This document shows, in pieces, positions 6,001-12,000 of a DNA stretch of 16,838 nucleotides. Origin of the DNA: a virus; the UHGV virus genome UHGV-1653291; one strand, given 5' to 3'. Positions within the stretch are counted from its first letter, which is position 1. Each line of letters begins with the position of its first letter. The position numbers were made by a program.

Positions 6001-9000
6001 CGAGCATTAAACCGTAACGATAACGAACAACGAGCCTCGGCAATTGCCGGGGCTTTTTTACATCCAGACAAAGGAGAACATGGGATGCCTTCGACAAGCA
6101 CCAAAAAAGAAATGGCGGTTAGTGATGTGCTTTACGCGCTTTCGACTATATGTGACGGAGCAATGATGAGGATGAAAGTCCTCCATGAAGCATACGGAAA
6201 AAGTCACGATGAGGCAGCTAAAGAGTGCCTGAATGAGATTGTGGACTTCATTGATAGCCATCGTTCAGTTATATCGCGTCAACCGACAGCGTCGTCCATC
6301 ACGATTAGCGCACCGGTTATCAATATATCAGTAACTGCGGCATGTAAATCAGCAGCGGAAGATGATCGTGCTTATGCCGAGTGATTTGTTCTGGTTTCCG
6401 CTTCCAATAAGAGATTTGTTGGTATTTCTAGCTGGCGCTTACGTCTGGAGAAAAGCGAAAGACACCTCGTTATCTTTGAGGTTTGTCTTAGCTATATCGG
6501 TAGGAACCGCGCTGGGGACGGCGTATCTCTTGACATTACTGGAGATATTCATTGAAGAATGGATAGTTTCATGAATGGTGTTGGCATTTTTCTGATGGTT
6601 GTGGCCGTGTGTTTTTGTATCTCGCTGGTGGTTATCGCTGGTGTCCTGTGGCGCATCTTAGTGGCGCAGAGGGCTTTTCGGCTTAAGCGGGAGCAAATGC
6701 GCCTTGATTTATATCGAAAGTAACTCTTACAGCCTCGCGGTGTCGCGGGGCTTTTTATTTTCAGGTGATGTTATGGAAAAGAAAGAAGATAAACCGATTG
6801 CCATTGGTGCAGAGTCTGTTCCGTTTAAGTTTGAATTATCCCAACTGGTAACAATGCGTATCAGTGAAGAGTGGGGAGAAGTTCAAGCCCGTGCTCAGTA
6901 TGCAAATGGCGAAAACCAGTATCTGATTCACTATCAGGCGGCTGATGGCCGTGCTTCCACAGAGTGGTTCGGTGAGTCGATGCTGATTGCGATGGAGGAT
7001 AAACGTCATCCTGGCTGCCCTGTTTTTGCCTGTATTGATTTGCCAGAAGGCGCGGTACTTGAAGACGACAAAGAAGAATGGTCGCCTGATGGCGAACTTG
7101 TCATTACCGGAATCGTGGATGGTAAGCCGGAATATTCCCGTATTGAGGTAAATAACGGCCACATCTGTTTGATCCCTGCGTAACGCATTACAGCAGCTCT
7201 TGTGCTAATCAGGGGCTGCGATAATGCGCAAACCAAAGCTGCCTCATTAACTCCTGCTCGCTGTGGAGTTAATGCTGGTGGCTTTTTTATTACTGGAAGG
7301 TGGGCGACCGCCGTCAGTTGCGACCTGACGACAGTCATTCATACCCACAGGGTGCCGTGGATACAAACCGAGGCCCACTTGCTTGCACAAGCGAGGGGAT
7401 TTTAGCGGATAAACGGCATGACAAAACATCTTAATGTGGTTTCTTTACCACTTTCTGTGTTGATTGGTTATGAAAAGAACGCTCGCACACACTCCGTGGA
7501 GCAGGTAGATCAGATTGTTGCCAGCATACAGGAGTACGGATGGACTAATCCGATCCTGATAGACGAGAACAACGTTGTAATTGCTGGTCATGGTCGAATT
7601 GCTGCGGCCACTCAGTTGGGGATGGATGATGTTCCCTGCATTGTTCTGGCTGGGCTAACGGAGAATCAGAAGAAGGCATATCGTCTGGCCGACAACCGTA
7701 TTCCGCTGAATGCTGGTTGGGATGAAGAGTTGTTAAGCGCGGAGCTTGCAGATCTTGCGGCCGATGATTTTGCTCTGGACTCAATTGGTTTTACTCAGCG
7801 CGAACTGGATAACTTATTGAGTGCGGCGGTCTACGATGACACAGAGGGTATGGATATCCCATTTGAGAAGGATGAGGCCAAATCAGGCGTAAAAGTTCAG
7901 TACCTGTCATTTGGAGGTCATAAAATCCCGGCAACGGATGAGGAAGCGGATCGTTTTGACTGCGCGGTGTCTCGTTATGTTGATGATAATGGCAGCTATA
8001 TCGGATTTGTATCCGCATTGCTGGCTGGGGAGGTGTGCTGATGCTTCACCTCAATTACGACATAACGCACCTACGCGGCGCGGAATATAACCCGCGTTTT
8101 ATCGGTGAGGATGATCTTGCGAGGCTGGCGGAAAGCGTCAGGGAGCTGGGGCTTGTGAAGCCATTGATAGTGCGCGGCGATTTGCTGGTGGCGGGACACC
8201 AAAGGACGAAGGCGCTACGTAAGTTGGGAATAACGCGTGCTGCGGTGTATGTGTTGCCCTGTGAAACGACGGTATACGACGAAGTACGGTTTAACCAACT
8301 GCATAACGGAACGGATTTTGATAGCGGAGATGAGCGTTGCAGGGTGTCCGGTCTGGAAGATAAGCATGGTTTTGTTCAGGTATCGGCAAGCCAGATCTCA
8401 GGCAATATGCGCGCGAAAATGGCATATGTTCGAAAGAACATAGCGGAACTGGTTATCAAGTATGGTCCGTGGGGTGGTTGTGTTGCTACTCAGTCTGGTG
8501 AGGTTATTCACTGTGCTCAGTATGCATTAGCAGCGAAAATGACGCGCACACCGCTAACGGTGTTTGTGATCCCTGATGTTGAGAAGGAAAAATACCAAAG
8601 TTATCTGAATAAAACTTATGGTGTATTTGAGTATTCTCATCTGGAGAAAACAACATACATCCAGACGTATGCGCAGCTTAAGCGGTTGCGTAATGGTGGC
8701 AGCCTGAAATCAAATCTGTATGAGTCGTTGATCCTCCCGATCATTGCCAAGACGCCAAGAGGAATTGATTTTGGTTCGGGGCAGGGAGACTACGCGCGAA
8801 TGCTCAGGGCAAAGGGATATAACCTGCATGATCTCGAGCTTTTCCGCCGTAAGGGCGCTGGAAACACTCTGGATAGGGCCGCAACAAACCGGATGATTGA
8901 TACGCTGGTGGACGACTTAAAAACGCGAGGGCGTTACGACTACGTGATTTGCGATAGCGTTTTGAACTCGGTCGATAGTGTCGAGGCTGAATGGTCCGTT

Positions 9001-12000
9001 CTGACGGTTCTGAAAGGCCTGTGTAAAGCTGGTGGGTCAATATTCTTTTCTGGCCGTAGCCGTGGAGAACTGGAAACAGTCCTGAAGCAAACACAAGCGG
9101 CGAGTTCCAAAAGCCGGCTTTATTTTATTGATCATGACGGTTTTACCGCGTTGTACCGGAAGGGGCACTGGTTTTACCAGAAGTTTCACTCTGATGAGGA
9201 AGTGAAGCAGTTGTGTCGTGTACATGGTTTCAGGATTAAGCGGTCAATATTCAACTGTAAGAGCTGGTATTTGCACGTCATTAACGATGATTCCCTTAGT
9301 TGGGCGAGTCTGGAGAAAGCTGTTCGTTTTGAGTTTGAGTTGCCGTTGCCTGGTGGTTCAACAATCGGACGATCTGATGATGTGCTGGCGGCTTTCCGGC
9401 CGTTGATTAAGTAGTGTGTAGGAGGCGCTGGTGGCTGACAGAATTGAGATAAAGATGGATTTTTCTTCTCAGGATATTCAACGACAACTCCAGCGCCTTG
9501 AAGAACGCGAATTGCCGTTCGCAATGGCGCTTGCGGCAACCAGAACGGCAAAGGCTTCTCAGGCTGCGATTAAGAATGAAATTAATCGGGTATTTGACAG
9601 GCCCACGCCGTGGATTCAGAACTCTACTTACGTTTTGGCCGCAAAGAAGAGTGATCCTACAGCCATTGTGTATGCTCGTGAATGGGGAGGAACGCCAGCC
9701 CCTGTAACGTTGACTCCGCAAATCGAAGGTGGCCAACGACAGTACAAACGCTCAGAAGGGGCGCTAAGGGCTGGTGGATATTTGCCTAACGGCTGGCAGA
9801 TTGCTCCTGGTCCCGGCGCAAAGCTGGACAAATACGGGAATATTTCGCGGGGGCAATTACAGCAGGTCTTATCTGGCCTAAGAGTTCAGCGAGATGCGCA
9901 TCAAAATCGCCGTCAGGGCAAGCCTACGGAGTTTTTTGTTGTTCGACCTGGTACAAGTAACCCGCTTCAACCAGGCGTCTGGCAGCGCGTTGGGCGGCGT
10001 CCTACGTTGATCCTTACGTTTATCCAGCAACCTAACTATTCGCAGCGTCTTGATTGGCATGGCGTGGCGCTGCGTGCTGGTGAGGATGCGTTTGCTGATG
10101 AAGTCACAAAGGCTATTGATGACATTCTTTCCAAGACCTTCTCTCGTTAATCATCGTGTGGTTGATGGTGTTGTTATGCAGAGTGTATTCACTGTGTTCT
10201 GTAGCGTCGCTCGCTGGCTGTCTGTGGGGGTGCACGAGCATCGTTTCATCGTCCGGCAGAATTGGGTCCTTCTGGACAAAAGCGTTGGATGCGGGTCATT
10301 CGAACCCCGATATTCGGCTAGCTAAACGTGAAAAAAGTTAGGTTAAAAGTTGCGGTAAAAGAAATTTACTCATCTCATTGAAAAATATCGGGAAAACGTG
10401 ATTTTTTCTGTATTTGTGCTGGTAAAAAGAAAGTGGAAAATTTTCTTTTAGATCATCAAGATACGCGCAGATCTTTAACCAATGTGATGTTGTTCTGATA
10501 AAAATCGTTATAAATCATGCAAATACATCCAATCTTTTAACCAAAACACCATCGCAAGATCCTTTTTACTTATAAAAACTTAATAAAATCAGATAATTAT
10601 GCTGGTTTGTGTGATTTTTCATGAGTAAAAAGATCGTCATTTTTCTCTTTTAGTATCAATAAGTTAAACAGTTTTCTTTAACCTGTTGTGTTATGGCGGT
10701 TAAAAAATGGCTCTAAAAATCGAATATTTACCAGTCGGTAAGTTGCTCAGATATGCCAAAAATTCACGGACTCATTCAGATGAGCAAGTTGAACAGTTGG
10801 TGAACAGTATCCGTGAGTTCGGTTTCACTAATCCTGTGCTGATCGATGAAAAGAATGAACTGATTGCGGGGCATGGGCGGCTTGCAGCAGCCGAAATTCT
10901 GGAAATGGATAAAGTTCCGGCGATTCGGTTGAGTAACCTTTCTGAAAAACAGAAGAAGGCTTACAGGATTGCAGATAACAAGCTGGCCTTAAATGCTGGC
11001 TGGGATATGCAGCTTCTGGCCGAAGAAGTCAAAGAGTTAATGGATGATGATTTTGATATTGATCTGCTTGGGTTTAATGATGCAGAGCTTGACGAAATGT
11101 TAAGCGATGAACAGCCGCAGGAAGAAGACGATAATTCTTCCCCTGTTGTTCAAATTAAGTACCTGGCTATTGATAAAGAACGTATTCCCGCGACGGATAT
11201 GGAAATTGCATTGTTGCTGGATGTTTATCGTCAGTACCACGACGCGCATGAAACGCATGAGGGATTTGTTCAGTATCTTGCTAATGGTTGCAAGTAATGG
11301 CCATCGTCAGTAAGTCAGAGTTTGCCCGCCGGAAAGGTATTTCTCCGGCAATGGTTACGAAGCTCTGTCGTTCCGGTCGCATTCCAGTGCTGAAAAGCGG
11401 CAAGCTGGATTTTGATAAAGCCAGTGCGGCTTATGAAGCGAGCCGACAGGTTGGTCGTGAGGTATCTGCTGAAAATGGAAAAAGAGGGCATGGGATATCT
11501 TCGGAACAACCAGAGTTACCCGCTGATGATGCCGGATTAGCTGGTGGTACTTCCGGTGTTGCGGTGCAATTCAACAAGGCTAAGACCGCAGAAAAAATTT
11601 ATCAGGCAAAGCTGAAACGCCTTGAATTTGAAGAAAAGGAAGGCTCTCTCATCGCTAAAGATGCGGTCAGGGATGATGCATTTCTGGCAGCTAATGAATT
11701 GCGTAGCCGCTTATTTAGTATTGCTCCAAGAGCAGCTCCCCGTTGTGAAGGCAAAACAGCCAGGGAGATCGAGCGCATTATTGAAGACGAGATTAATTTT
11801 GCGCTTCAGGCGCTCCAGGAATCCCGATTTATTAAGCAGGAAGAATAAACCTCATGGGCGAAACAGTATGGAGCACCGCTTTTTTCCGTGCGCTTCGCCC
11901 TAAATCACGGCTAACTGTTTCCGAATGGGCTGATAAGTATCGTCATGTAGCGCCGGGAACGTCTCCAAAGCCAGGGCCGTGGCGTACAAGCCGAGTGCCA

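Follow-up and report, generated by a model that had tools for sequence, protein, structure and literature searches.

What substrate would a phage methyltransferase have that is fused to ParB domains, lacks the DPPY motif of DNA amino-methyltransferases and is encoded ahead of the packaging genes? The question is raised by a gene at positions 8041–9414 of a 16,838-nucleotide stretch of the UHGV virus genome UHGV-1653291 (hereafter the window), which derives from a ~48 kb phage-plasmid. An earlier interpretation made from the DNA without database searches (the sequence-only reading) had proposed that this open reading frame (ORF) joins a ParB/Srx domain to a methyltransferase. Pfam, PHROG and NCBIfam matches and an identical RefSeq coding sequence (WP_016238701.1, from a 99.9% identical plasmid) confirmed the fusion, and a match to PHROG 5475 (E 2.8e-264) spans the full length of the protein. 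The structure was predicted with a predicted template modelling score (pTM) of 0.88. The product is a three-domain enzyme, comprising a ParB/Srx domain with a GxxR motif, a degenerate ParB/Srx domain and a class-I methyltransferase dependent on S-adenosylmethionine (SAM) with a family-specific active-site region. Its features are given below, with invariant columns scored on an alignment of 38 relatives of 44–100% identity.

8041..9414, plus strand: fusion gene of 457 amino acids (aa), ParB/Srx unit 1, cryptic ParB/Srx unit 2 and class-I SAM methyltransferase
8041..8322, plus strand: ParB/Srx unit 1, aa 1–94, predicted nucleoside triphosphate (NTP)-binding domain with ParB_N, Noc and Spo0J matches
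8194..8205, plus strand: GxxR (box II / P motif), G52-H53-Q54-R55, invariant in the 38 relatives and aligned with GERR of Spo0J
8323..8610, plus strand: cryptic ParB/Srx unit 2, aa 95–190, with I-H157-C-A-Q160-Y161 in place of the GxxR box
8611..8745, plus strand: basic linker or N-terminal extension of the methyltransferase, aa 191–235, with invariant columns
8746..9300, plus strand: class-I SAM methyltransferase core, aa 236–420
8767..8787, plus strand: motif I, D243-F-G-S-G-Q-G249, the SAM-binding loop; D243, F244 and G247 invariant, aligned with LDVGCGGG of UbiG
8836..8850, plus strand: post-I acid E266, then the pair R269-R270, all in invariant columns
8953..8976, plus strand: post-beta4 segment D305-S-V-L-N309-S-V-D312, at the structural position of motif IV, with no DPPY

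The class-I motifs that the sequence-only reading had seen in the C-terminal half were borne out. Residues 231–398 matched Pfam Methyltransf_23 (PF13489) at 31.9 bits, above the cutoff of 27, and the half has a Rossmann-like fold in which motif I is glycine-rich and beta2 ends with an acidic residue. D243, G247, E266, D305 and N309, together with R55 of the ParB domain, are invariant across the relatives. On sequence grounds this half is predicted to bind SAM and transfer a methyl group. Strong constraint on the catalytic and nucleotide-binding residues makes it very probable that the fusion protein is active as a SAM-dependent methyltransferase and that its ParB domain binds NTP.

The suspicion that the enzyme belongs to a class other than the N6-adenine/N4-cytosine (N6A/N4C) DNA methyltransferases, raised by the apparent lack of a (D/N/S)PP(Y/F/W) motif, also held. 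The pattern [DNS]PP[YFWH] is absent from 118 of 118 family members (the window protein, 37 aligned relatives and 80 relatives from viral contigs). This absence is uninformative by itself, because chance absence is the norm for so short a motif, which occurs in only 0.4% of shuffles of the fusion sequence. Conservation after beta4 is the informative point, because the position expected for DPPY holds the invariant D305-x-V307-x-N309. Here D305, V307, N309 and D312 are invariant, C304 is not conserved among relatives, and opposite the segment the O-methyltransferase UbiG has C-M-E-M-L-E-H-V. In Pfam, NCBIfam and PADLOC alike, no DNA methyltransferase model matched the catalytic half. Where the fusion did match PADLOC MTase_II and PHROG 498, it was only over residues 7–73, in the ParB part, and the PADLOC defence-system models were set aside with matches limited to that part. 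No Pfam match to C5-cytosine DNA methyltransferases (PF00145) was obtained, and the only Pro-Cys dipeptide lies at residue 73, in the ParB domain.

The half is Methyltransf_23-like by sequence, and its best PDB sequence match in a profile search was UbiG. Its fold neighbours are uncharacterised SAM methyltransferases, toxoflavin N-methyltransferase, UbiG, Trm9, METTL6, glycine N-methyltransferase and natural-product C-methyltransferases. Domain and fold searches thus neither placed it in an N6A/N4C family nor failed to predict a methyltransferase fold, and the sequence evidence supports a methyltransferase that is not of the N6A/N4C or C5 DNA type. Identity to UbiG and other small-molecule enzymes of the Methyltransf_23 type is only 10–20%. 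Unlike these, the fusion family has E266-L-F-R-R and a long helix in place of the usual beta3 region, family-specific invariant residues (R269, R270, R339, R373, W377 and E431-F432) and a methyltransferase domain found essentially only inside the ParB fusion. Among 1.84 billion cluster representatives, a profile made from the methyltransferase half alone matched 801, 246 of them at E ≤ 1e-30; nearly all of the best 150 were 450–490 aa long and matched at about residues 190–460. Because the 801 matches are almost only the same architecture or fragments of it, this methyltransferase type is essentially exclusive to the fusion. Relatives outside the fusion were sought as an outgroup, with no informative one among the representatives.

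At the N-terminus, residues 7–68 matched Pfam ParB_N (PF02195) at 24.3 bits (E 3.2e-5), slightly under the cutoff of 26.3, and PF02195 is present in the precomputed annotation of most relatives. Further matches were to PHROG ParB families (best E 2.5e-14, PHROG 620), NCBIfam Noc (E 4.6e-6) and Spo0J in the PDB (E 0.002), with VAGHQRTKAL opposite VAGERRFRAA in the Spo0J alignment. Besides the GxxR motif, which the sequence-only reading had identified, box I (LVK40P41LIVR) and a box III-like segment (F84-N85-Q86-x-H88-N89-G-T-D92) are invariant in the relatives. The N-terminal ParB domain of that reading therefore stands, and its extent as a single domain of ~90 aa does not: the predicted fold has two ParB/Srx domains in tandem, the second assigned to residues 95–200. 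We recognise the second from the predicted fold, since neither sequence comparison gave anything significant. An internal duplication was rejected at the sequence level when hhalign of residues 1–98 against 99–200 proved not significant (E 0.14 over 9 columns), and a profile of residues 95–200 gave no matches to PDB sequences. The segment of unit 2 equivalent to GxxR has no arginine, so that this unit is predicted to be unable to bind NTP canonically. Fold-search hits for ParB/Srx include the small-molecule kinases SerK and SbnI. Neither the fusion nor either of two stand-alone paralogues in the window matched HTH_ParB or a dimerisation domain (Pfam, NCBIfam), and no ParA gene was found in the window. 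Following the ParB units, the linker has the invariant residues Y193-G-x-F-x-Y198 and Q208..A211-Q212..R215 and a median isoelectric point (pI) of 9.6; linker and methyltransferase parts are basic, with median pI 9.0–9.6.

The genes that flank the fusion are of two kinds, ParB-like and packaging.

7418..8041, plus strand: stand-alone ParB-like partner, 207 aa, acidic, GHGR box II (Pfam ParB_N E 4.4e-5, PHROG 620 E 4e-74)
10707..11297, plus strand: second stand-alone ParB-like paralogue, 196 aa (ParB_N E 3.8e-8, PHROG 620 E 4.6e-75)
11288–11848, plus strand: small terminase, TerS (PHROG 57 E 7.4e-42)
11854–13710, plus strand: gpA-type large terminase, TerL (GpA_ATPase and GpA_nuclease, E 1e-76 to 1e-85)

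Adjacency to two ParB paralogues and to packaging genes, noted from the sequence, was confirmed and is conserved across the whole family. The two paralogues are 49% identical to each other. The partner gene overlaps the fusion start by 1 nucleotide (nt): the stop codon of the partner gene and the ATG at 8041 share one letter (TGATG, 8039–8043), with a Shine-Dalgarno sequence, GGGGAGG, at 8027–8033. Such an overlap, with its ribosome-binding site, makes translational coupling of the two genes probable. Between the second ParB-like gene and the longest TerS ORF the overlap is 10 nt (11288–11297), or 1 nt with the RefSeq start (equivalent of 11297), which suggests that this ParB-like gene is coupled with the terminase too.

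We compared neighbourhoods in 80 viral loci, which form 54 clusters at 90% fusion identity, 48 of them with enough upstream sequence. A same-strand stand-alone ParB-like ORF (median 210 aa, pI 4.6) was present just before the fusion in 44 of these 48 non-redundant loci, where its end either touches or overlaps the start of the fusion or lies no more than about 470 nt ahead of it. Two of the four loci lacking an adjacent partner have a tandem fusion duplicate, with the ParB-like gene further upstream. Two full-length tandem copies were observed in loci L087 and L088 (around 3036–5900, 5600–8440), with a stand-alone ParB-like gene 1.4 kb further upstream and an SNF2 helicase after the tandem fusions in place of a terminase. 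A large terminase gene lies 0.45–2.6 kb downstream in at least 38 of 47 loci, from two bacterial phyla, and these terminases belong to four families: gpA, Terminase_1-like (TerL_ATPase/TerL_nuclease), Terminase_3 and Terminase_6. The order ParB-like, fusion, TerS, TerL is intact in Bacteroides phage BS-TP3. It is looser in a Bradyrhizobium prophage, where the stand-alone ParB is ~0.7 kb upstream with one gene between and the terminase is ~8 kb away; Amidoligase_2, two GGACT/AIG2-like gamma-glutamyl cyclotransferases and an N6_Mtase/MTS-like gene are encoded between module and terminase in this prophage (L003–L005, 11054–17196). Dioxygenase, DpdA, glycosyltransferase, kinase or other metabolic or hypermodification neighbours were not recurrent in the loci. 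A family of ~145-aa Cys/His-rich proteins (HCAxCL, YLCGV, CRNWQF) without Pfam or PHROG match was seen in 33 of the 54 non-redundant loci, mostly directly downstream of the fusion (same strand in ~20 loci, convergent on the opposite strand in ~10; for example L036 2240–2668, plus strand, L070 8873–9313, minus strand, and L006 2210–2644). It is absent from the window.

The closest phage relatives of the partner are N-terminal ParB modules of annotated DNA methyltransferases (55% over 146 aa for Vibrio phage D81), and where it matches PHROG 498 and the PADLOC type II methyltransferase model, exactly this module is covered. With tblastn (E ≤ 1e-10), partner homologues were found in 308 phage records, against 7 records with the fusion. 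Partner-type genes thus mostly occur without the fusion, and the fusion rarely without a ParB-like neighbour. The stand-alone ParB-like proteins of the window and of loci L010–L089 share a C-terminal segment of ~60 aa, ..IPxTDxE..Y.D.HG...GF.

The full-length architecture is kept down to about 27–33% identity, and the family holds at least 246 clusters at 50% identity from phages of Proteobacteria, Bacteroidota and Firmicutes. Members are found in prophages of Serratia, Pantoea, Klebsiella, Bradyrhizobium and Xanthobacteraceae and in many metagenomic viral contigs, along with Bacteroides phage BS-TP3 and Brochothrix phage BtpYZU02. A search for well-studied phages that carry the fusion turned up only an E. 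coli/Yersinia phage-plasmid group, these two phages and one unannotated faecal phage contig. The window DNA is 99–99.9% identical in many non-mobilizable E. coli plasmids of ~47–50 kb and is also present in records submitted under phage names (Escherichia phage vB_EcoM-613R2 and Yersinia phages vB_YpM_39/41/44). Among 5,426 complete E. coli genomes, 71 have the fusion gene, on plasmids in 73 of its 74 places, and the plasmid of strain ATCC 25922 (NZ_CP009073.1) carries it at 99.2% identity. Public records (ON470591.1 and NZ_CP103471.1) label the gene ‘nuclease’, ‘ParB N-terminal domain-containing protein’ or ‘methyltransferase domain-containing protein’ and the flanking paralogues ‘chromosome (plasmid) partitioning protein ParB’. 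The domain and neighbourhood evidence gathered here gave no support to a nuclease or partition label, and in genome annotation the names ‘partition protein’ and ‘nuclease’ should be avoided for the fusion gene.

This family is widespread in phages and already catalogued, as PHROG 5475 and as ParB-CTPase with Methyltransf_23. In a survey of ParB-CTPase-fold fusions by Kaljevic, Sukhoverkov, Johnson, Hocher and Le (PNAS 2025; PMC12704722), Methyltransf_23 is a partner enriched in phages and prophages and is called a predicted DNA methyltransferase; Pfam architecture and enrichment are the same as in the window family. A protein named ‘ParB-CTPase-phageMethyltransferase23’ (uvig_65837_18) was purified and an R-to-A mutant of its pocket made, according to the supplementary tables. 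R-to-A mutants were made for exactly 11 proteins, which is the number of NTP binders reported, and a SAM-methyltransferase fusion is stated to bind ATP, with the label ‘bacterial’ in the main text (PMC12704722). We translated the published gBlocks 112.1 and 112.2, assigned to uvig_65837_18 by table order. The two fragments are 42% and 41% identical to the window protein and carry the signatures of its family: AGHQRTKA, RFNQVHNG (RFNQxHNG), DFGCG (DFGxG), (L)EFF, ICDAVINSV..EAE (ICDxVxNSV..EAE) and FISGR (FxSGR). By analogy with this relative, whose AGHQRTKA is identical, the window fusion may bind NTP through its GxxR pocket. The novelty implied by the sequence-only reading is reduced, because the architecture was catalogued and a relative had been purified and tested for NTP binding. 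In its available part, the survey classes fusions by Pfam domains only and describes no second ParB/Srx domain, partner gene, terminase position or substrate. What is new here is the cryptic second ParB/Srx domain, the near-obligate co-translated partner, the link to four terminase families across phyla and the gene in ATCC 25922.

Related arrangements are known. Fusions of ParB to N6/N4 DNA methyltransferases near phage terminase genes have long been described (PMC3592412). These proteins (PF02195 with PF01555; B. cereus prophage Bce_0392, PHROG 498) likewise have an N-terminal ParB and a SAM methyltransferase near the terminase, and the window partner is most similar to their ParB module. 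The window methyltransferase, in contrast, is of another class, with no PF01555 match and no DPPY, and the ParB domain of the fusion is divergent (GHQR) and followed by a second degenerate domain, with a canonical-type ParB supplied in trans. O’Toole et al. (PNAS 2026; PMC13229309) reported that phage ParB-like proteins without a DNA-binding domain are required to activate neighbouring thymine dioxygenases on double-stranded DNA. As in the window, the ParB-like protein of these 5mYOX systems is encoded beside the enzyme and terminase genes are frequent neighbours. The 5mYOX enzymes are Fe/2-oxoglutarate dioxygenases with demonstrated DNA activity, whereas the window enzyme is a predicted methyltransferase carrying two ParB domains of its own. 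ParB-domain genes also co-occur with the DNA carboxymethyltransferase CmoX (PMC12783734).

We tentatively favour, at somewhat short of an even chance, a methyltransferase tethered by ParB and gated by NTP, whose target would be phage DNA late in infection and whose mark would be non-canonical. The fusion gene would be co-translated with its acidic partner at the boundary between the plasmid-maintenance/early region and the packaging operon. NTP binding (probably of ATP) by the ParB domains, alone or with the partner, would be the switch that brings the methyltransferase onto replicated phage DNA. The enzyme would then mark this DNA before or during packaging, by chemistry other than that of N6A/N4C (DPPY) or C5 (Pro-Cys) enzymes, and the mark may serve self-marking or evasion of host nucleases. 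This reading starts from the domain architecture, the conserved SAM- and NTP-binding residues, the conserved partner and the terminase-adjacent position; we infer that the substrate is DNA and that ParB is a clamp or loader, along with when the enzyme acts and what purpose it serves. Of the possible substrates DNA is the likeliest, because the partner is of a type fused to DNA methyltransferases and the linker and catalytic parts are basic, because the position ahead of the packaging genes is independent of terminase type, and because every characterised phage ParB-like context involves a DNA-modifying enzyme. A DNA substrate would require a chemistry unlike that of DPPY amino-methyltransferases and of cysteine-dependent C5 enzymes. 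The role in DNA modification or anti-restriction at packaging that the sequence-only reading put forward can likewise be inferred from this context. The family might even represent a new class of DNA methyltransferase, in which a domain of small-molecule type is delivered by an ATP-gated ParB pseudo-dimer with a partner in trans and leaves a mark unlike that of any known class, a proposal we regard as unlikely though worth stating. Such a mark could sit, for example, on a ring nitrogen or another position outside N6A/N4C/C5, and standard callers of N6-methyladenine (6mA), N4-methylcytosine (4mC) and 5-methylcytosine (5mC) would miss it.

Several points weigh against the favoured reading. No family member is known to act on DNA. 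In fold and in sequence alike, its closest neighbours are small-molecule O-, N- and C-methyltransferases and tRNA methyltransferases, the top 50–60 hits of either fold search include no DNA methyltransferase, and no target-recognition domain, base-flipping aromatic residue or catalytic cysteine was recognised in the fusion. A nanopore methylome of the carrier strain ATCC 25922 contained only GATC, CCWGG, RTACNNNNGTG and GGTCTC/GAGACC, reported as matching REBASE assignments (PMC12679398), and hence no unassigned 6mA, 4mC or 5mC motif in this one public dataset. So clean a methylome fits a silent late gene or a non-canonical mark, and equally well a substrate other than DNA. ParB/Srx domains can be small-molecule kinases, as SerK and SbnI among the fold hits illustrate, and the tested relative appears to bind ATP, as ParB/Srx kinases do. 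The identification of ‘phageMethyltransferase23’ as the ATP binder is itself a reading of the supplementary tables; the main text says ‘bacterial’. Finally, an SNF2 helicase takes the place of the terminase after the module in three related loci.

Other substrates have to be weighed against this evidence. The enzyme could be a protein methyltransferase, tethered by its ParB domains to a nucleoprotein assembly and targeting the acidic partner, TerS or a head or packaging protein. The fold class includes such enzymes: rickettsial PKMT2 matched the profile at E 0.0024, and CheR and CypM are among the weak or structural hits. An obligate co-translated partner that is very acidic (pI 4.6) faces a basic methyltransferase part, and the location beside packaging genes is constant whatever the terminase family. 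No similarity to a protein methyltransferase family exceeded a curated threshold in Pfam or NCBIfam, however, and the 308 phage records with partner-type genes, against 7 with the fusion, imply that most partners function without it; we consider this explanation improbable. There is a similarly small chance that a nucleotide or small molecule is methylated, with unit 1 binding ATP or another nucleotide as substrate or being kinase-like; this might, for example, disturb host signalling or defence or use up SAM. In its favour, the closest sequence and fold relatives are small-molecule enzymes, the ParB/Srx relatives include ATP-using sulfiredoxin besides the two kinases, and the family member is reported to bind ATP rather than CTP (PMC12704722). 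The pTM would also suit a rigid, compact three-domain body, possibly with a composite active site, and the domain junction has a cluster of invariant acidic and polar residues (H88-N-G-T-D92-x-D94). The partner’s kinship to ParB modules of DNA methyltransferases points the other way, as do the loci, whose recurrent genes are ParB-like, packaging and those of the unannotated ~145-aa family (33 of 54 loci) rather than metabolic ones. Methylation of host or phage tRNA or mRNA late in infection has only a slight probability. ParB-fold fusions to the predicted RNA-related domains UPF0020, ASCH and PUA-like DUF3850 do exist (PMC12704722), but the matches to tRNA methyltransferases did not stand out from those to dozens of other, unrelated class-I enzymes, the searches gave no RNA-binding domain, and the context is packaging, not translation.

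Two more conventional explanations fared worse. That the fusion is an ordinary N6A/N4C DNA methyltransferase with a drifted motif IV might be expected from ParB-N6_N4 fusions, which are common in phages at similar positions. It is close to refuted and very improbable: no DNA methyltransferase model in Pfam, NCBIfam or PADLOC matches the C-terminal half, none appears in the fold-search lists, and the motif is missing from all 118 members while the residues at its position are invariant. Closer still to exclusion is the idea that the phage-plasmid is partitioned by its ParB-like genes. The element does replicate as a plasmid, with an IncFII RepA, and the public records name the flanking genes accordingly; yet the window has no ParA gene, HTH_ParB and dimerisation domains were not detected, and phages of other phyla that are not plasmids, as well as an integrated prophage, have the same module beside terminase genes.

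Increasingly, ParB-fold domains look like accessories of general use to phage DNA-modifying enzymes, and this family couples them to a methyltransferase class without known DNA activity. If the substrate is DNA, the family would bring a new phage DNA-marking chemistry, relevant to restriction evasion, to methylome calling and possibly to enzyme tools; if it is not, there would be evidence that ParB domains also target non-DNA substrates. Carriage on the ATCC 25922 phage-plasmid makes the substrate question directly testable.

The remaining features of the window are as follows.

12–1927: tail fibre and tail fibre assembly protein
2291–3271: IncFII-type RepA (Pfam search)
4728–5380: Gp49/HigB-like toxin and helix-turn-helix antitoxin pair
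9431..10150, plus strand: 239-aa gene directly downstream of the fusion (PHROG 1924 E 2.8e-97)

The toxin pair is followed by several small genes, the ParB-like gene, the fusion gene, the 239-aa gene, an AT-rich gap and the second ParB-like gene, and then by TerS, the gpA-type TerL, a DUF6148 gene, a lambda-type portal and a ClpP-like head protease. The annotation of the 99.9% identical NZ_CP103471.1 has, a few kb ahead of the ParB module, an MT-A70 family methyltransferase that the window does not encode; upstream of that module the two elements appear mosaic (L001 6845–7432 against window 4728–5380). The 239-aa protein has no Pfam match and was rejected as a third component of the module, its gene being kept only in close relatives (loci L010–L017). 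PHROG 1924 carries the label ‘minor tail protein’, which is doubtful here because the gene lies between the methyltransferase and packaging genes, far from the tail genes. The AT-rich gap of 557 nt (10150–10707) separates the 239-aa gene from the second ParB-like gene. It contains three direct repeats, TTGTnCTGrTAAAAA, at 10414, 10490 and 10564 (spacing 74–76 nt), and several inverted repeats. Three Yersinia phage records terminate inside it, at about window position 10293–10305, and the gap is a candidate cos/pac region or terminase/ParB binding region.

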